Positions 497-30,477 of a stretch of 32,908 bases of DNA are shown here, in pieces; within the stretch, counting starts at the first letter, position 1; every line of letters begins with the position of its first letter. The stretch lies in assembly GCA_021421665.1 (NCBI GenBank), contig GCA_021421665.1_4698.1; one strand, 5' to 3'. A program made the translations under genes and the position numbers. This stretch comes from a phage. The notes below the pieces were generated by a model. That model was not told the origin of the DNA. It ran no database searches and was given only the letters and a program-made list of their open reading frames with translations.

Positions 497-695
497 ACTA
501 AGCAAAGTTTGCTCTTGCGGTAAAGGCTATCGTAGTCGTATCGATGGTAAGTGTGAAAACTGTAGAAGCCAGAAGGATAAGGATGTGCTCTACTTATTCT
601 GGCGTGATGTATCAATACTTGATGTGAGTCCTGATTCTTTAAAAGGTAAAGTTCTAAGATTAAACACTTTTGGAGCAATCTATGAAATCAATTGA
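483..695 (+). CDS. small Cys-rich protein (70 aa), possible zinc ribbon
   Basis: ATG at 483 with GGAGGA 5 nt upstream; CSCGK...CENC four-Cys arrangement; the ORF-track start at 456 lacks an SD. Confidence 0.45.
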   Translation: MKTIKLSKVCSCGKGYRSRIDGKCENCRSQKDKDVLYLFWRDVSILDVSPDSLKGKVLRLNTFGAIYEIN

Positions 696-3228
696 TTGGA
701 AGAAGGAAGCAGAAGGTCGTATCCTCGTCATGGACGCCGAAAGTAAAGGTCTTCTTGATGCTATCCGCTATGGTCATCGTGAAGATGTACACATCATTTG
801 CTGCATGGATTTGCTTACTACCGAGGAGTTCTTATTCTTCGACCCGTATGAGATGCGTGACCCTGAAGCAAGGGAGCGCCTGAAGGAATGGGAAGGGCAT
901 CAAGATGGTGACTTGGTTGATGGTGTTAACTTCCTGAAGCACTGTGAAGCTATCGTGTCACAGAACTTCCTAGGATATGACGGTCTTCTCTTTGAGAAAG
1001 CATTCCCTGCTATCTGGAAAGGTTTTAACTATACCGAGAGGCGAGGCAAGGGCAGACTCCGCGCTGACCTGTGTCCTGTGCGAGTCATGGACACGCTGGT
1101 GATGAGTCGCCTGTTAAACCCCGATAGGCGCCTCCCTCCGCAAGCATACGCCAAAGGTATGGGTAACGTCGCCCCTCACTCAATTGAGGCGCACGGCATC
1201 CGTATAGGCCGCTATAAACCGGAGAACAAGGACTGGTCTAAGCTGACCGACCACATGGTTCACCGTGTACGTGAGGACGTGGCGATTGGTCGTGACTTTT
1301 TCCTGTGGCTGTATAACGGGGAATGGGTGGAGCACAAACGCCGTGGCGTGAATAAACGTACTGGCCTAGGCATTGAGACAGCCTTCCACATGGAATCCAT
1401 TGTGGCGCTGGAGATGAGCCGTCAGGCCGAGCGCGGATTCCGTCTGGACATCGACAAGGCGTTAGCGCGATGCGAAGAACTGGACGCTAAGGTTGATGAG
1501 ACAGTCGCAGCGTTCCGTCCGCACATGCCTATGCGTATCAAGTCTAAACCTTTTAAACCGGAAGAAAAGAATGAAGTATGCCAACGCGCAAATGAGTATG
1601 GAGCTAGCAACAATATACCTACTATCCTGGACCCCTCTCACTTTCTTCACACAGAGAGACGAGGAGATCGCAAGACAGTATGGAGTGTCACTACTAAGTC
1701 TGGTGATTGGTCAGCTAGTGTCAAGAAAGACTTTCCTCACCTTAGAGGAAACCGTAATGACACGCCAAGCATCAAGTGGATTGGTGCTTACTCGCCTGTT
1801 ACTTTCGAAGAAATTCCCTTGGGTAACAGGGATACAGTTAAGCAAGTGCTCTATGATTATGGATGGAAGGGTGTTGAATTTAACGATACCGAGCAAGCGC
1901 ATCTGGATGAGCACGGAGTGTTACCCAAACCTTGGAGTGGAAAGATAAATGAGAAGTCCCTTACTTTATGGCAGGAAAGAGCCGCACGTGAAGGTAAAAC
2001 AGTCCCTGATTGGTGCTTGGGTATCGCTGCATGGTACATACTCGTATCCCGTCGTGGTCAGATACTCAACCGTGGTGACGTTGAAGCCTTCAACGAGAAA
2101 GGAACGTGGCCCTCGCAGGCTGGTGTACGAAAGTGTCGCGGCCTTGTACCTGTAGCTTTTAACAAGGAGTTAGGGATCAATGCGCAGCAATACTACGAGA
2201 GGTATGGGTGTTGGCCTACGTCTGACAAGGATGACGGAGAGTGGCGTGTGCCAGCTATTGCTATTAGCATTGGCACTTCTACGTTCCGTATGCGTCATCG
2301 TAACGTGGTTAATATTCCTGCCCGTGGCTTGTATCCTTTACGTGATTTATTCATAGCAGGTGAAGGTAAGTTAATCCTAGGCTGTGATGGTGCAGGTCTT
2401 GAACTACGTGTACTATCTCACTTCATGAATGACCCTGAGTACCAAGATATTGTACTGCACGGTGACATACATACGCATAACCAGATGAAGGCTGGTCTTC
2501 CTAAGCGGGATATGGCGAAGACATTTATATATGCTTTCCTTTACGGATCTGGTATAGCAAACCTTGCAGCAGTATGTGGTGTTACTGAGGAAGAAATGAA
2601 GGAAGTTGTGGCAAGATTCGAGATTGAACTACCATCTCTTGCACGTCTTCGTGAGAATGTTATTGCACAAGGCAACAAGTTTGGCTACCTACAAGCACCT
2701 GATGGACACTGGGGTCGCATCCGTATGTCTGGTGGTGAACTTAAAGAGCACACTATGCTTAACGTATTGCTACAGATGACTGGTTCTTTGTGTATGAAAT
2801 ATGCATTGGTTAAGGCATTTGCAGTGATGCGCAAGGAAGGTGTGGCCTTAGATGGTATGGGAAACCCTTGTGGTGTAGCTAACGTGCACGATGAAATCCA
2901 GATGGAAGTACCTGAAGACGAGGTATTATATCTTAACTACGACTTACCTTTCACCCTAGAAGGGTTTGAAACAGAGAAGGCTGCTGTGAAGGCAGTGTTC
3001 GATGCAGAGGAGAAACGTGTTCATGTTGATTCCGAAGGGCGCATGTGGTCGGCTGCTAACTTGGTTGAAGTGGATGCTACTGCTGGTGTGTTGCGTTGTC
3101 AGCGTCGCTACCACAGGGCTGGTCATATTATCGCTGACGCAATGACTTGGGCTGGTCAGTATCTGAAGATGCGTTGCCCGATGGCAGGCGAATATAAGAT
3201 TGGTGCAAGTTGGAAGGAGACACACTAA
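682..3228 (+). CDS. DNA polymerase, family A (T7 gp5-like), with N-terminal 3'-5' exonuclease region
   Basis: Pol I motifs read in translation: DGAGLELRVLSHFMND (motif A), RDMAKTFIYAFLYGSG (motif B), VHDEIQMEV (motif C); resembles recalled T7 gp5 blocks GLELRCLAHFM and AKTFIYGFLYGAG. Start taken at ATG 682 (GGAG upstream) rather than the TTG at 670. Confidence 0.95.
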   Translation: MKSIDWKKEAEGRILVMDAESKGLLDAIRYGHREDVHIICCMDLLTTEEFLFFDPYEMRDPEARERLKEWEGHQDGDLVDGVNFLKHCEAIVSQNFLGYDGLLFEKAFPAIWKGFNYTERRGKGRLRADLCPVRVMDTLVMSRLLNPDRRLPPQAYAKGMGNVAPHSIEAHGIRIGRYKPENKDWSKLTDHMVHRVREDVAIGRDFFLWLYNGEWVEHKRRGVNKRTGLGIETAFHMESIVALEMSRQAERGFRLDIDKALARCEELDAKVDETVAAFRPHMPMRIKSKPFKPEEKNEVCQRANEYGASNNIPTILDPSHFLHTERRGDRKTVWSVTTKSGDWSASVKKDFPHLRGNRNDTPSIKWIGAYSPVTFEEIPLGNRDTVKQVLYDYGWKGVEFNDTEQAHLDEHGVLPKPWSGKINEKSLTLWQERAAREGKTVPDWCLGIAAWYILVSRRGQILNRGDVEAFNEKGTWPSQAGVRKCRGLVPVAFNKELGINAQQYYERYGCWPTSDKDDGEWRVPAIAISIGTSTFRMRHRNVVNIPARGLYPLRDLFIAGEGKLILGCDGAGLELRVLSHFMNDPEYQDIVLHGDIHTHNQMKAGLPKRDMAKTFIYAFLYGSGIANLAAVCGVTEEEMKEVVARFEIELPSLARLRENVIAQGNKFGYLQAPDGHWGRIRMSGGELKEHTMLNVLLQMTGSLCMKYALVKAFAVMRKEGVALDGMGNPCGVANVHDEIQMEVPEDEVLYLNYDLPFTLEGFETEKAAVKAVFDAEEKRVHVDSEGRMWSAANLVEVDATAGVLRCQRRYHRAGHIIADAMTWAGQYLKMRCPMAGEYKIGASWKETH

Positions 3229-3385: not shown

Positions 3386-3646
3386 ATGATTAAATACACT
3401 GCTTATCAATTAACTAAAGACCGTAAGATAGGTGTTGAGGTTAAAGCTTGGAATGAAGGACACATCACTGTAGTTATAGAGTGTCTCCAAGACAATGGTG
3501 TGATGCTAAGAAGCTACCGTTGCTTCACCAAATTACGCTGCAAGGATTTAACTGAAGAATTATTCTTACGTTGTATTGTTGAATCTATTAAACTTATTAG
3601 ACCCTACGCCAAGCAAGTTGTAGGTAATGTCACAGTAGTACATTGA
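3386..3646 (+). CDS. hypothetical protein (86 aa)
   Basis: ORF-track ORF 3350..3646; ATG at 3386 is preceded by GAGG at a suitable distance; in-frame alternatives at 3350 (GTG) and 3359 (ATG). Confidence 0.5.
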   Translation: MIKYTAYQLTKDRKIGVEVKAWNEGHITVVIECLQDNGVMLRSYRCFTKLRCKDLTEELFLRCIVESIKLIRPYAKQVVGNVTVVH

Positions 3647-3668
3647 TTTACTGGACACTATAGAAGGA
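3646..3668 (+). promoter_or_regulatory. SP6-type phage RNAP promoter ATTTACTGGACACTATAGAAGGA
   Basis: Matches SP6 promoter consensus ATTTAGGTGACACTATAGAAGAG at 19 of 23 positions; predicted +1 G at 3663; intergenic. Confidence 0.8.
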
Positions 3669-3732
3669 ATGCCTAGGTAATCTAGGTTTATAAGGTAGTA
3701 TAGGTAGTTAAGTAAATATAGGAGGTATAAAT

Positions 3733-4059
3733 ATGTCTATGGTGACTACTCTGGTATTCGTGGCTCAATACTTTCGTGGCTTATCTAATAAGTTTAAGCA
3801 GAAGGCTATCTTTGCAATTCAAGAGCGTATCAATAAAATTGAAGAAGAACAAGTAGATGTAGAAGAACATCGTAGTTCTCAAATGATTGACTGCCACAAC
3901 CGCTACTATGCATCTCGTGATGACCTTAATGCGCGTCAAGTCAAAGAGGTTGAAGAGATGCTGGCCGCCACCAGCAAGAGCGTGACAAACTGGAAGCTGA
4001 CTTCGAAGAGAACAAGGCACCCATCGCCCTTGTACATCAAGCCGCATCTGACAGCTTGA
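3733..4059 (+). CDS. hypothetical coiled-coil-like protein; C-terminal part may continue in the -1 frame to 4109
   Basis: AGGAGG SD before ATG 3733. A second frame is open 3954..4109, lacks a start of its own, encodes a coiled-coil-like peptide and ends at the SD of the next gene. Confidence 0.5.
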   Translation: MSMVTTLVFVAQYFRGLSNKFKQKAIFAIQERINKIEEEQVDVEEHRSSQMIDCHNRYYASRDDLNARQVKEVEEMLAATSKSVTNWKLTSKRTRHPSPLYIKPHLTA

Positions 4060-5660: not shown

Positions 5661-5676
5661 GTCTCACACGTGAGAC
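5661..5676 (+). other. hairpin gtctca-CACG-tgagac (family member)
   Basis: 6-bp stem with tetraloop seen directly; no T-tract follows; lies between a gene end and the promoter at 5692. Confidence 0.3.
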
Positions 5677-5691
5677 AAATAGGTGTCCGGT

Positions 5692-5714
5692 ATTTACTGG
5701 ACACTATAGAAGAG
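5692..5714 (+). promoter_or_regulatory. SP6-type phage RNAP promoter ATTTACTGGACACTATAGAAGAG
   Basis: 21 of 23 match to the canonical SP6 promoter; predicted +1 G at 5709. Confidence 0.8.
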
Positions 5715-14057: not shown

Positions 14058-14107
14058 AGAAATGTCTCCCTAAATTATCAATTTGATTTATAAGGAGATC
14101 ATAATAC

Positions 14108-15307: not shown

Positions 15308-15315
15308 TACCTATG

Positions 15316-15348
15316 CCCTATCTACCTTGCGTAGGTAGGGTTCTTTTT
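15316..15348 (+). terminator. terminator-like hairpin (ccctatctac / gtaggtaggg) followed by TTCTTTTT
   Basis: 10-bp stem with one G-U pair, then a T-tract; immediately after the capsid gene, the position T-phi occupies in T7. Confidence 0.6.
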
Positions 15349-15361
15349 GTTAGGAGGATTC

Positions 15362-22194: not shown

Positions 22195-22222
22195 CTTGTC
22201 TCACATGTGAGACAGGTCTTTA
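22195..22222 (+). other. hairpin cttgtctcac-AT-gtgagacagg followed by TCTTTAT (family member)
   Basis: 9 to 10-bp stem seen directly; T-rich tract follows; between the two large internal virion protein genes. Confidence 0.4.
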
Positions 22223-26610: not shown

Positions 26611-26896
26611 ACATGCAGCTACAGAGGATGAGGTTGGCATTCTGCATGGTGCTATTACCAAAATCTTCAATAAGAAAGCACAGGCTATACTGGACACTAT
26701 AGAAGAAGACCCAGATGCAGCACTGCATTTAGTGTCTGGTAAAGACATTGGTGCTATGTGCAAATGGGTTCTTGATAATGGTATTACCGCTACACCTGCT
26801 GCACAGCAGGAAGAGTCCAAGTTGTCTAAGCGCCTCAAGGCTATCCGAGAGGCATCTAGTGGTAAGATTATTCAGTTTACAAAAGAGGACAATTAA
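26594..26896 (+). CDS. terminase small subunit (gp18-like)
   Basis: 100 aa, GTG start after GGAGGGAG, immediately upstream of the large terminase; positional assignment. Confidence 0.65.
   Translation: MSVHNKHAATEDEVGILHGAITKIFNKKAQAILDTIEEDPDAALHLVSGKDIGAMCKWVLDNGITATPAAQQEESKLSKRLKAIREASSGKIIQFTKEDN
26685..26707 (+). promoter_or_regulatory. intragenic SP6-promoter-like sequence CTATACTGGACACTATAGAAGAA
   Basis: Core CTGGACACTATAGAAGA is intact but the two upstream positions differ from all intergenic copies; lies inside the small terminase coding sequence. Confidence 0.35.
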
Positions 26897-28794
26897 TGGC
26901 TAAGGCAAGAGAATCACAAGCGGAGGCTCTTGCCAGATGGGAGATGCTACAGGAGTTACAGCAGACCTTTCCTTACACAGCGGAAGGTTTGCTTCTCTTT
27001 GCAGATACAGTTATTCATAATCTGATTGCAGGCAACCCTCATCTGATTCGTATGCAGGCCGATATCTTAAAGTTCCTATTCTATGGGCACAAGTATCGAC
27101 TCATCGAAGCGCCTCGTGGTATCGCTAAGACAACACTCTCAGCAATCTATACAGTCTTCCGTATCATCCATGAACCACATAAGCGTATCATGGTTGTATC
27201 CCAAAATGCCAAGCGAGCAGAGGAAATCGCCGGTTGGGTAGTTAAAATATTCCGTGGCCTAGACTTCCTTGAGTTTATGCTACCTGACATATACGCTGGA
27301 GATCGTGCATCCGTCAAAGCCTTTGAGATTCACTACACGTTACGCGGCAGTGATAAGTCGCCTTCTGTGTCCTGTTATTCTATTGAAGCAGGTATGCAGG
27401 GTGCTCGTGCGGATATTATCCTAGCAGATGACGTAGAGTCTATGCAGAATGCTCGTACAGCAGCAGGTCGAGCCTTACTTGAGGAATTAACCAAGGAGTT
27501 TGAATCTATCAACCAGTTTGGTGATATCATTTATCTTGGTACACCTCAGAACGTAAACTCTATCTACAACAACCTACCTGCTCGCGGCTACTCTGTTCGC
27601 ATCTGGACTGCACGTTACCCTTCGGTGGAGCAAGAGCAATGCTATAGTGACTTCCTTGCACCTATGATTGTGCAGGATATGAAGGACAACCCAGCACTTC
27701 GCTCAGGTTATGGCTTGGATGGCAACAGTGGTGCACCTTGTGCCCCTGAAATGTACGATGATGACGTCCTGATTGAGAAGGAAATATCGCAAGGTGCTGC
27801 TAAGTTCCAGCTCCAATTCATGCTTAACACTCGCATGATGGATGCAGACCGCTATCCTCTACGTCTGAATAACCTCATCTTCACCTCATTTGGCACAGAG
27901 GAAGTCCCTGTGATGCCTACATGGAGTAATGACTCTATTAACATCATTGGAGATGCACCTAAGTATGGCAATAAACCTACAGACTTCATGTATCGACCTG
28001 TTGCCAGACCATATGAATGGGGTGCTGTTACCCGTAAGATTATGTATATCGACCCGGCGGGTGGCGGTAAGAATGGGGACGAAACGGGTGTAGCGATTGT
28101 CTTCCTGCATGGCACATTCATTTACGTGTATCAGTGCTTCGGAGTACCGGGCGGATACCGTGAATCGTCTCTGAATCGCATTGTGCAGGCCGCAAAGCAG
28201 GCGGGTGTTAAAGAGGTATTCATTGAGAAAAACTTTGGTCATGGCGCGTTTGAGGCGGTAATTAAGCCATACTTTGAACGTGAGTGGCCCGTTACACTGG
28301 AAGAGGATTACGCTACCGGACAGAAAGAGTTGCGTATCATTGAGACGCTAGAGCCGCTCATGGCGGCGCACAGGCTCATCTTCAACGCTGAGATGGTCAA
28401 GTCTGACCTTGAGTCAGTACAGCACTATCCGCTTGAACTACGCATGTCCTATAGCCTTTTCAATCAAATGTCGAACATCACGATTGAGAAGAACAGCCTC
28501 CGGCACGATGACCGCTTAGACGCTCTGTACGGCGCTATACGGCAATTAACTTCTCAGATAGACTATGACGAGGTTACACGGATTAATCGCCTCAGAGCGC
28601 AGGAGATGCGCGATTATATCCAAGCTATGAATACACCTCACCTCCGCAGGGCAATGCTCTATGGAGATTATGGGACTGAGCGAAGAGTGACCAACACTTC
28701 TGTAGCGATGCAGCAGCGGGTTTATGGTCAGAACTACCGGAATAAGTCTTCCAATAGAAATACCATTTCTGCAAGGATTTCAAGGACTTATTAA
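26896..28794 (+). CDS. terminase large subunit (gp19-like)
   Basis: 632 aa; Walker A-like EAPRGIAKTT; acidic catalytic stretch ADIILADDVE; position after small terminase. Confidence 0.92.
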   Translation: MAKARESQAEALARWEMLQELQQTFPYTAEGLLLFADTVIHNLIAGNPHLIRMQADILKFLFYGHKYRLIEAPRGIAKTTLSAIYTVFRIIHEPHKRIMVVSQNAKRAEEIAGWVVKIFRGLDFLEFMLPDIYAGDRASVKAFEIHYTLRGSDKSPSVSCYSIEAGMQGARADIILADDVESMQNARTAAGRALLEELTKEFESINQFGDIIYLGTPQNVNSIYNNLPARGYSVRIWTARYPSVEQEQCYSDFLAPMIVQDMKDNPALRSGYGLDGNSGAPCAPEMYDDDVLIEKEISQGAAKFQLQFMLNTRMMDADRYPLRLNNLIFTSFGTEEVPVMPTWSNDSINIIGDAPKYGNKPTDFMYRPVARPYEWGAVTRKIMYIDPAGGGKNGDETGVAIVFLHGTFIYVYQCFGVPGGYRESSLNRIVQAAKQAGVKEVFIEKNFGHGAFEAVIKPYFEREWPVTLEEDYATGQKELRIIETLEPLMAAHRLIFNAEMVKSDLESVQHYPLELRMSYSLFNQMSNITIEKNSLRHDDRLDALYGAIRQLTSQIDYDEVTRINRLRAQEMRDYIQAMNTPHLRRAMLYGDYGTERRVTNTSVAMQQRVYGQNYRNKSSNRNTISARISRTY

Positions 28795-28815
28795 TTACTG
28801 GACACTATAGAAGGA
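28793..28815 (+). promoter_or_regulatory. SP6-type phage RNAP promoter AATTACTGGACACTATAGAAGGA
   Basis: Starts at the terminase stop; predicted +1 G at 28810; followed by a 130-nt AT-rich leader with TAGGT repeats and hairpin gggtgtac-TACT-gtacaccc (28887-28906). Confidence 0.8.
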
Positions 28816-28946
28816 AGGCCCAGAGAATAAGAGAAATAATAGGTAATATATAGGTTAACCTAGGTTATATAGGTATGCCTTAGTATGGGTGTACTACTGT
28901 ACACCCTATTCCTTCCTTACTATATTTACATAATAGGAGAGAGACA

Positions 28947-29225
28947 ATGGCTAATGATTATAGTAGTCAACCATTAACAGGTAAGTCTAAGAGAAAGCAG
29001 GTACAACCTGTAAGTGAAGCACTAATGCTTCCGGTAATCCCAAAAGAGGAAGCTAGTAAGAAAAGCAATGTTATTAATGATGCCACCAAATCAGGTAAAC
29101 AGAAAGGGGCAATGGTATGCCTTGAAGTGGACGATGGTGTATTGAAGATTGCTATCGCGGTTGATGGCAAAGAAGATTCAGAGTGGAAGTTAGTGACAGT
29201 GGAACCCACTGTTACCCCAGCTTAA
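28947..29225 (+). CDS. hypothetical protein (92 aa), paralog A of a tandem pair
   Basis: AGGAGAGAGA SD; shares the block SGKQKGAMV-LE--D--L-IA-A and C-terminal VTPA with the next gene. Confidence 0.6.
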   Translation: MANDYSSQPLTGKSKRKQVQPVSEALMLPVIPKEEASKKSNVINDATKSGKQKGAMVCLEVDDGVLKIAIAVDGKEDSEWKLVTVEPTVTPA

Positions 29226-29243: not shown

Positions 29244-29528
29244 ATGGCTAAATATGGTGAAGGTTCTGTTACTGGTCAGGCTTTTCGAGTAAAAGCAGTA
29301 CAAACTATTGCAACGGCAATCCCTATGCCTGTTGTTAAAGAAGCAGACCTTAAGAGTAAAGATCACCCTATAAACATCAAACACCTGTCAGGTAAACAGA
29401 AAGGTGCAATGGTTGCTCTTGAGAAAGCGGACACAACCTTACATATTGCTGTTGCACGTGGTAGTGAACCAACAGACCCTTGGGATGTAACTGGTATGGA
29501 ATCGGACGCTGTTACTCCGGCAGGGTGA
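29244..29528 (+). CDS. hypothetical protein (94 aa), paralog B of a tandem pair
   Basis: GAGGAGGA SD; shares SGKQKGAMVALE and a VTPAG C-terminus with the preceding gene. Confidence 0.6.
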   Translation: MAKYGEGSVTGQAFRVKAVQTIATAIPMPVVKEADLKSKDHPINIKHLSGKQKGAMVALEKADTTLHIAVARGSEPTDPWDVTGMESDAVTPAG

Positions 29529-29532
29529 TACC

Positions 29533-29880
29533 ATGATGCTTAACAAATACTTCAAGCGTAAAGAGTTCGCTTGCCGTTGTGGATGCGGTACATCCACTGT
29601 TGATGCTGAGTTACTACAGGTAATCACAGATGTGCGTGAGCACTTTGGCGTACCTGTAGTTATCACCTCTGGTCATCGCTGCGTTAAGCACAATACCAGT
29701 GTAGGTGGGGCCAAGAACTCCATGCATCTTACAGGTAAGGCTGCTGATATTAAAGTATCTGGCATCTCACCTTCTGAAGTGCATAAGTATCTTACTGGCA
29801 AATACCAAGGTAAGTACGGCATTGGTAAGTATAATTCCTTCACGCACATTGATGTACGCGATGGGTGTGCACGATGGTAA
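29533..29880 (+). CDS. peptidase M15-family zinc peptidase, probable endolysin
   Basis: N-terminal EFACRCGCG and zinc-binding pattern SGHR...SMHLTGKAADI...THIDVRD; located in the lysis region. Confidence 0.75.
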   Translation: MMLNKYFKRKEFACRCGCGTSTVDAELLQVITDVREHFGVPVVITSGHRCVKHNTSVGGAKNSMHLTGKAADIKVSGISPSEVHKYLTGKYQGKYGIGKYNSFTHIDVRDGCARW

Positions 29881-30454: not shown

Positions 30455-30477
30455 ATTTAGGTGACACTATAGAAGAG
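30455..30477 (+). promoter_or_regulatory. canonical SP6 promoter ATTTAGGTGACACTATAGAAGAG upstream of the tailspike genes
   Basis: Exact 23 of 23 identity to the SP6 promoter as used in cloning vectors; predicted +1 G at 30472. Confidence 0.9.

Follow-up and report, generated by a model that had tools for sequence, protein, structure and literature searches.

The DNA between positions 28793 and 28946 of the 32,908-nucleotide stretch analysed here (the window) forms the promoter-proximal leader of a late operon located 3' of the terminase gene in an SP6-like coliphage. Three paralogous modules of this type occur per genome, in which a phage promoter and a purine-rich start precede a strand-specific array with units of 9-10 nt. 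Judged by comparison with relatives, the leader is a real, conserved and composite feature, in which an SP6-type promoter and a purine-rich start are followed, in 5' to 3' direction, by a TAGGT array and a GC hairpin, and then by a pyrimidine tract that leads to a ribosome-binding site. A first-pass annotation, made from the letters of the window, had described an A+T-rich TAGGT-repeat leader behind a promoter, as the second copy of such an element, together with a hairpin and a bracketing inverted repeat. The positions of all the elements that it named proved exact, and the leader was confirmed to be promoter-proximal and a true counterpart of copy 1, with the same promoter core and the same type of array, a third copy being present in phage K1-5.

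On sequence grounds, the source genome is a Vectrevirus (K1-5/K1E-like, SP6 supergroup). A 1 kb segment around the leader matched 105 phage records, the best of which were Vectrevirus genomes at 94% identity, including K1-5. All long ORFs of the window lie on the + strand, and the first large one (670-3228) is the counterpart of the K1-5 DNA polymerase, so that the window spans approximately the region from 9.1 to 42 kb of K1-5. On its 5' side the leader is bordered by the terminase large-subunit gene (26896-28794, + strand), a homologue of K1-5 gene 40 and T7 gene 19 that was recognized from its ORF and from the annotation in K1-5 and relatives, and on its 3' side by the homologue of K1-5 gene 41 (28947-29225, + strand), an ORF which is the first gene of the operon under the 28810 promoter. 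Next come the gp41 paralogue gp42 (29244-29528, + strand) and an M15 endolysin (29533-29880, + strand), which is followed by small ORFs. The next phage promoter 3' of the 28810 start was found at 30462, and none lies in between that could serve gp41, gp42 and the endolysin. A domain check of the downstream genes, including the paralogues gp41 and gp42, revealed no recognizable nucleic-acid-binding domain, and the gene 3' of copy 1 had a PHROG as its sole match.

The leader begins with an SP6/K1-5-type phage RNA-polymerase promoter, AATTACTGGACACTATAG^AAGGA (28793-28815, + strand), which overlaps the terminase stop codon. It matches the ~20-bp consensus ..ACACTATAG^AAG.. on the coding strand, is intergenic and recurs: the GGACACTATAGAAGGA core (-10 to +6) is matched exactly at 28800-28815, and eight sites of the GGACACTATAGAAGGA type were observed on the + strand of the window as against 0.33 expected. 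The promoter was retained in all relatives. By the SP6 promoter convention, in which the G of TATAG is the first transcribed nucleotide, +1 is predicted to be G28810, and the purine-rich initially transcribed sequence AAGGAAGG (28811-28818, + strand), which is also the 5' arm of the bracketing repeat, would then occupy +2 to +9. From +1 to the hairpin, the purine content amounts to 65%.

The array itself (28826-28886, + strand) is A+T-rich (74%), poor in C (6.6%) and periodic at ~10 nt, and is composed of TAGGT units and a CCTTAGT box at 28878-28884. The stretch ATAGGTAATATATAGGTTAACCTAGGTTATATAGGTATGCC singled out in the first-pass annotation is present at 28839-28879. TAGGT units start at 28840, 28851, 28861 and 28870 (spacings of 11, 10 and 9), and a conserved TTAGT follows in phase at 28880. 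Four TAGGT within 40 bp occurred in one of 300 simulations in which the window was modelled as a first-order Markov chain, and the periodicity of the array gave a lag-10 z of 2.5. The second-best TAGGT cluster of the window (3674-3705) belongs to copy 1 (3646-3732, + strand), where a promoter with an identical -10 to +6 core and +1 at 3663 is followed by the units AAGGA/TAGGT/TAGGT/AAGGT/TAGGT, 9-10 nt apart (lag-9 z = 3.3, lag-18 z = 3.8), which continue in phase to the Shine-Dalgarno (SD) sequence of the gene at 3733. Copy 1 lacks a hairpin and its array leads straight to the ribosome-binding site; a hairpin structure and a pyrimidine tract are added in copies 0 and 2. The three arrays of K1-5 are located at ~6.05 kb after the RNA-polymerase (RNAP) gene (copy 0), at ~12.6 kb after the DNA-polymerase genes (copy 1) and at ~37.6 kb (copy 2). 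Copy 0 falls outside the present window, and copy 1 corresponds to its positions 3663-3732.

Conservation was examined in 27 terminase-anchored loci from IMG/VR (76-100% amino-acid identity). The module was found 3' of the terminase gene in all 27 relatives and in a shared order, with the terminase stop, the promoter, the purine-rich start, YAGGTA-type units ~10 nt apart and the CCTTAGT box, followed by a GC hairpin, a pyrimidine tract, an SD sequence and an ATG. When the 1.15 Mb of fetched loci were scanned for arrays of at least four [TCA]AGG[TA] units at a spacing of 8-12 nt, 58 runs were detected on the transcribed strand versus none on the opposite strand, nearly all of them at most ~50 nt 3' of a phage promoter. 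Spacing was 9 or 10 nt in 160 of the 170 intervals of 40 distinct arrays, with wwwaTAGGTAat as the unit consensus. A profile search extended the comparison to terminases 55-60% identical, next to which the promoter, the 9-10-nt array, usually a hairpin, the pyrimidine tract and the SD sequence recurred. The array motif is TAGGTAGTC or CTAGTA in two metagenomic phages (L121 and L124), TAGAGC in all of copies 0, 1 and 2 of Vibrio phage phi-A318, and (C)AGTAGC in both copies 0 and 2 of Pseudomonas phage Njord, the last two loci being contigs that match these phages. In phi-A318, copy 0 is found downstream of the RNAP gene with a tandem promoter on each side, and a mini copy 1 is placed behind the DNA polymerase. 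Across these lineages, the period and the position of the array are ancient and the motif is lineage-specific. Arrays of short repeats were also seen at genome ends, with the unit CCTTAGT in K1-5 and GCTCTTG in phi-A318; the resemblance of the leader motif to the genome-end array is suggestive in phi-A318 (AGAGC versus GCTCT) and inconsistent in K1-5, and a link between the two kinds of array is possible.

The GC-rich hairpin GGGTGTAC-TACT-GTACACCC (28887-28906, + strand) has an 8-bp stem with five G-C pairs, a 4-nt loop and a free energy of about -13 kcal/mol. As a perfect inverted repeat of at least 8 bp arose in ~10% of shuffles of a 137-nt sequence of leader composition, neither of the two inverted repeats is remarkable by itself and comparative data were needed. 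Analysis of full leaders with MAFFT and RNAalifold was unusable because the repeat units misalign, and was replaced by hairpin calls on each sequence and a covariance-model alignment. Of 23 distinct leaders, 21 had the hairpin; its stem occurred in at least five sequence versions (GGGUGUAC/GUACACCC, GGGAGGUA/UACCUCCC and GGGUACUC/GAGUACCC among them, as well as stems with tandem G.A mismatches), and its energy hardly varied (-12 to -13.5 kcal/mol). In the covariance-model alignment of 15 distinct sequences, which is fitted to the structure and biased towards the hairpin, all 118 cells were paired and six of the eight pairs showed changes on both sides; the unaligned raw sequences agree with this result. 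The covariation score reached 0.58, compared with 0.14 for shuffled data (none of 500 reached 0.58), and slid partners gave no more than 0.17. The hairpin noticed in the first pass was thus borne out as a real, selected structure by compensatory covariation across relatives, which points to an RNA-level role for at least the hairpin part of the leader. Hairpins at the 5' end also occur after most other promoters of the window.

Downstream of the hairpin follow a pyrimidine (CU)-rich tract (28907-28931, + strand; 76% pyrimidine), which contains CCTTCCTT at 28911-28918, and the SD sequence AGGAG with the ATG of the gene-41 homologue (28935-28949, + strand), both recognized from the sequence. The tract is pyrimidine-rich in all clades, including the Vibrio and Pseudomonas phages, and its length differs among close relatives by CCTT or TTCCTTAC units. 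The first-pass annotation had further proposed that AAGGAAGG pairs with CCTTCCTT and thereby sequesters the 5' end of the transcript, a pairing which is indeed predicted when this one sequence is folded. When duplex energies between the first 28 nt and the 30 nt 3' of the hairpin were compared in 11 leader classes, cognate combinations averaged -10.7 and non-cognate ones -11.4 kcal/mol (permutation p = 0.86), and the pairing was absent in a close relative (L004). This bracketing helix was rejected as a conserved structure, since no covariation was found in the 11 leader classes, and the match is a by-product of a promoter-imposed purine-rich start and a later pyrimidine tract. RNA folding of the whole leader, the check that had been suggested for it, gave no better result than shuffles (z-scores of -0.9 and -0.8). 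An ATG/GTG/TTG-GG.. frame which, in several clades, crosses the hairpin and CU tract was considered as a leader peptide and rejected by inspection, as a start codon results from three of the four bases that can precede TGGG, pyrimidine tracts are stop-free by composition, and the compensatory stem changes rewrite the peptide.

Our best guess as to function, held tentatively and with something short of even confidence, is that the leader is the equivalent of T7 phiOR, i.e. an origin or unwinding element of the T7 type which is activated by transcription and at the same time provides the late lysis operon with its 5' UTR. The phage RNA polymerase would start at 28810 and would at once open the most easily melted DNA of the genome. 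The C-poor, purine-rich transcript would stay on the template or re-anneal to it and would be used as a primer by the phage DNA polymerase, and the displaced strand would serve as a loading place for the helicase-primase. The GC hairpin and the U/C-rich tract would act as a boundary at the RNA level (a pause, a weak terminator or a stabilizer), which most polymerases would pass to allow the expression of gp41, gp42 and the endolysin.

The suggestion of an origin element had already been made in the first-pass annotation, and it gains indirect support from the position of the module and from the ranking of duplex stability. In a nearest-neighbour scan of whole sequences with 60-bp windows, the leaders of phiOL, phi1.1B, phi6.5 and phiOR were the four least stable segments of T7, and copies 2, 1 and 0 were the three least stable segments of K1-5. 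In the 32.9-kb window, copy 1 (3674) ranked first and copy 2 (28826-28885) second (z = 3.5); in SP6, copy 1 ranked first and copy 0 fifth, and copy 2 was found in the top 3.5% only. The leader resembles T7 origins, in which a phage-RNAP promoter is likewise followed by the least stable, A+T-rich DNA of the genome, and the positions are also equivalent to those in T7. Copy 2 comes after the terminase large-subunit gene, like phiOR after gene 19, and copy 0 follows the RNAP gene. In K1-5, copy 0 is placed between two tandem promoters 3' of the RNAP gene and just 5' of the gene for a 42-residue protein (MRNFEKM...), whose SP6 homologue, SP6p09, is annotated as gp1.1; in the same manner, the tandem promoters phi1.1A and phi1.1B of T7, with the primary origin and its A+T-rich region, are located after the RNAP gene and 5' of gp1.1. 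As the array of K1-5 copy 0 is followed by a promoter and not by a gene, the arrays are not simply translation leaders. The leader of phiOR is periodic as well (lag-11 z = 4.1) and, like copy 2, has a hairpin before the next gene. The T7 leaders differ in that they contain no TAGGT units and have a recurring CTTAAG/CTTTAAG motif instead, and nothing but gene 19.5 lies between phiOR and the genome end, in contrast to the essential lysis and tailspike region that follows here.

To our knowledge, replication origins have been experimentally defined in T7 only, and those named for SP6-like phages are guesses. Origin activity in T7 is an experimental finding (PMC8373140 and work cited there). Of the T7 elements, phi1.1A/B are primary and phiOR and phi6.5 secondary origins (PMC8373140). 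As the sole origin of a plasmid, phiOR needs a T7 RNAP variant and the loss of RNase H, which was read by the authors as R-loop priming (PMC8373140). In the literature consulted on origins and repeats in SP6-like phages, to which the genome papers Dobbins 2004 and Scholl 2004 did not belong, we found no data on origin initiation and no description of the arrays. According to the garbled wording of a citing paper, Dobbins et al. suggested a bidirectional origin near SP6 gene 14 (DNA polymerase), the neighbourhood of which is the site of copy 1.

Other observations tell against the origin reading or limit it. The copy 2 array of phi-A318 has an unremarkable duplex stability (z = 1.0), with the periodic array still present; as arrays are kept there and in SP6 copy 2 in spite of weak instability, low stability cannot be the whole reason for them. 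Moreover, the five least stable segments of the window include the capsid leader at 14070, and A+T-rich leaders are also expected to accompany strong ribosome-binding sites. We know of no need for a specific repeated motif in T7-type origins, whereas the arrays described here keep a clade-specific motif across copies. An origin model alone would leave the 9-10-nt period and the clade-specific motif unexplained, and an additional sequence-specific partner may be involved. A scan of R-loop thermodynamics (RNA:DNA minus DNA:DNA nearest-neighbour energies) proved non-discriminating, as the arrays fell into the top 1.6-4% and the primary origin of T7 was not favoured. The recognition site of SP6 primase is reportedly 5'-GCA-3'. 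On the top (displaced) strand this triplet was found neither in 28810-28946 (~2.9 expected) nor in 3663-3732 (~1.5 expected), and the bottom strand carries one per leader; a role of the leaders as primase sites, for which GCA was assumed from SP6 primase, was rejected on this basis.

The SP6-like group includes phages that are used in therapy and capsule typing. If the three arrays were origins, they would offer defined, testable sites for SP6-like phages, the T7 rule of 'promoter plus easily melted DNA' would gain an extra conserved layer in the form of a lineage-specific 9-10-nt periodic motif, and the module could be used as a compact origin or leader cassette for orthogonal SP6-type expression and replication systems. 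The module also forms a recombination boundary between packaging genes and host-range/lysis genes, which is relevant to phage engineering.

It is conceivable, although we doubt it, that array, hairpin and CU tract function in the transcript only and together make up a 5'-UTR element through which mRNAs synthesized by the fast phage polymerase are controlled in their stability or translation. This could involve protection of the 5' region, an S1-binding pyrimidine enhancer before the SD sequence, or AGG units that serve as weak SD-like landing or decoy sites. The strict confinement of the arrays to the transcribed strand and to the first ~100 nt of transcripts argues for such a role, as do the covariation of the hairpin, which is that of an RNA helix, the run of the copy 1 array in phase to the true SD sequence, TAGGAGGT, the 5' hairpins behind most of the other promoters and the location of the CU tract directly 5' of the SD sequence. 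However, the K1-5 copy 0 array precedes a second promoter, the copy 2 array is parted from the ribosome-binding site by a stable hairpin and ~40 nt, the leader is no more structured than shuffles, and the bracketing helix shows no covariation. The 3' end of 16S rRNA is conserved among the hosts of these phages, so that a lineage-specific motif weighs against pairing with it. TAGAGC of the Vibrio phage and AGTAGC of the Pseudomonas phage are not based on AGG and not SD-like, which weakened the candidate of an SD mimic acting by anti-SD pairing.

Known RNA elements provide likenesses as well as differences. The RNase III sites and 5' stem-loops of T7 (R1.1, R6.5 and R13; gene 10 leader) are also promoter-proximal structured RNA before a first gene, and in K1-5 copy 0 an array unit can pair with the CU tract to give a helix of ~17 bp. 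RNase III needs roughly two helical turns of dsRNA (~20 bp, coaxial); the sole conserved helix of copy 2, with 8 bp, is too short by this rule, and long-range pairing is not conserved. Sponge RNAs such as CsrB/RsmZ and STAB-SD elements likewise present several AGG-containing units in unstructured, C-poor RNA, but the core is AGGU here and not the GGA in hairpin loops of CsrB/RsmZ, and the motif of the Vibrio and Pseudomonas phages is not AGG-based. The multiple GGA of CsrA-binding RNAs were not found, as the units read UAGGU(A) and GGA occurs only in AAGGAAGG and in the SD sequence. Rfam yielded no hits over the whole window, and 28700-29050 gave chance-level hits only, none of them at the gathering threshold. 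If the arrays were mRNA leaders only, they would be a modest addition to the gene-expression signals of phages.

Alternatively, the 9-10-nt repeats might be iteron- or operator-like sites at which a phage or host factor binds to dsDNA, to the displaced strand or to the nascent RNA, an explanation that we regard as unlikely but that is compatible with the origin reading. Such a factor would act cooperatively at three promoters, either to regulate them or to mark the sites for replication or packaging. Phages of E. coli, Vibrio and Pseudomonas all keep a period of ~9.5 nt, whereas the motif is clade-specific and common to the copies within a genome, as expected for co-evolution with a trans factor, and related short-repeat arrays flank the genome ends (those of K1-5 and phi-A318 noted above). 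The motif pattern is what co-evolution with a lineage-specific partner would give, but motifs could alternatively be homogenized by slippage combined with gene conversion among the copies. Further points against binding are the degeneracy of the units within one array and the lack of a candidate binder, the downstream genes encoding no recognizable nucleic-acid-binding domain; nor do we know of origin-binding proteins in use in the T7 group. Iterons and the 10-11-bp parC repeats bound by ParR resemble the arrays in being tandem direct repeats of about one helical turn beside a promoter and in having a lineage-specific motif, whereas the units here are short, degenerate and strictly transcription-oriented. 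We would give a small chance to a bolder version, in which the arrays are an undescribed class of one-helical-turn promoter-proximal arrays that mark the origins of the T7/SP6 supergroup and are read by a lineage-specific phage factor. Its motifs may comprise TAGGT in Escherichia and Salmonella phages, TAGAGC in Vibrio and AGTAGC in Pseudomonas phages and the weaker 11-nt period of T7 phiOR. Should factors indeed read the arrays, iteron-like origin recognition would exist in a group thought to need only a promoter and A+T-rich DNA.

That the hairpin and its U/C-rich tail are a promoter attenuator, which ends some transcripts ~100 nt from their start, appears quite improbable; a small TAGGU-repeat RNA would then be released or the expression of the lysis genes would be tuned. 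The hairpin at 28887-28906 is stable and GC-rich, as in a class I terminator, and together with the tail TATTCCTT it passes a simple terminator scan. A putative terminator is annotated here in MK373773 and, as 'Tphi-2' (ARNold), in Vibrio phage phi-A318, the tail is U/C-rich in all clades, and a GC-rich stem-loop with a U- or pyrimidine-rich tail is shared with T7 Tphi and with the capsid-gene terminator of the window (15315-15350). In contrast to these, the U run is broken here (UAUUCCUU, as against UCUUUUUGUU at the clear terminator after the capsid gene): the tail UAUUCCUUCC has five U in the first eight positions after the stem, interrupted by A and C. The hairpin does not stand at the end of a transcription unit either, but 78-97 nt after the promoter and before gp41, a location ~80 nt 3' of the promoter at which it would attenuate at most. 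Since the 28810 promoter is the only phage promoter available to gp41, gp42 and the endolysin, the next one being at 30462, termination at the hairpin could be partial at most, and copy 1 has no hairpin at all.

Finally, an absence of function, with neutral slippage repeats in low-complexity intergenic DNA, is extremely improbable, for although the number of TA and CCTT units varies among close relatives and chance produces an 8-bp inverted repeat in ~10% of shuffles, the comparative data contradict it, with an architecture conserved across genera, a strand bias of 58 to 0, a fixed position relative to the promoter and a hairpin that covaries.

In one relative (L015 4396-4440), an SP6-type terminase gene and the upstream half of the promoter were found fused to a leader of the K1E/K1-5 type. 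This join therefore marks a recombination junction at the promoter, and the leader module thus forms the boundary between the packaging genes on one side and the lysis and host-range genes on the other. On the packaging side, an insertion of ~745 bp was detected within the terminase large-subunit gene of several relatives (L012, L021, L023, L024, L026, L028 and L029), in which the terminase match spans 2638-2642 nt versus 1896 nt where the insertion is lacking. This could represent an intron or a homing-endonuclease insertion; the terminase gene of the window carries no such insertion. On the other side, the first two genes after the copy-2 leader (28947-29225 and 29244-29528) are paralogues that both belong to protein family phrog_2725, and no Pfam domain was found in either of them. 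The RefSeq name of their homologues, 'acetyl-CoA acetyltransferase', looks like an annotation carry-over.

Analysis of T7, to whose origin promoter phiOR copy 2 has been likened, revealed a clear 11-nt periodicity in the phiOR leader (L101, T7 39229-39390; z = 4.1). When 60-bp windows were ranked by duplex stability over the T7 genome, the four lowest proved to be exactly the leaders of phiOL, phi1.1B, phi6.5 and phiOR (loci L101 and L147).

The other two leaders, copy 1 after the DNA-polymerase genes and copy 0 after the RNA polymerase (RNAP) gene, showed features of their own. A 98-aa ORF with a weak match to phrog_35123 lies 5' of the copy-1 promoter in this phage (3350-3646), whereas K1-5 carries a short pyrimidine-rich spacer in its place (TTATTCCTACTTATTTT). 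In copy 0 of K1-5 (L030 6083-6135), one array unit and the pyrimidine tract after the array constitute a perfect inverted repeat of 12 bp (GTAATAGGTATT / AATACCTATTAC). In L036 both arms differ at their distal bases, with pairing retained (GTAATAGGAAG / CTTCCTATTAC). The repeat is possibly a long hairpin or an RNase III-like site that is specific to copy 0.

The palindrome (G)TCTCAC-N2-3-GTGAGA(C) is found at dispersed sites: two times in the window (5662-5675 and 22199-22212) versus 0 expected, five times in K1-5 (L030 6003, 6184, 8394, 14560 and 31016), nine times in Vibrio phage phi-A318 (L145) and ten times in Pseudomonas phage Njord (L149). At least three copies are located directly 5' of phage promoters, namely one at each of the two tandem promoters that follow the RNAP gene of K1-5 and one at window position 5662, ahead of the promoter at 5699. 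The palindrome may form a hairpin common to SP6-like phages that serves in termination, pausing or processing.

The genome ends of K1-5 carry arrays of the short repeat CCTTAGT(G) (L030 131-726, with 16 copies at this left end, and 43926-44319), and phi-A318 has an end array of GCTCTTG(G/A) (L145 about 41630-42300), both resembling the CCTAAAG arrays that adjoin the terminal repeat of T7. In the copy-2 leader, unit five (28878-28884) reads CCTTAGT, as in the K1-5 end repeat. For phi-A318, taking the reverse complement of the genome-end motif gives the core of the leader motif.
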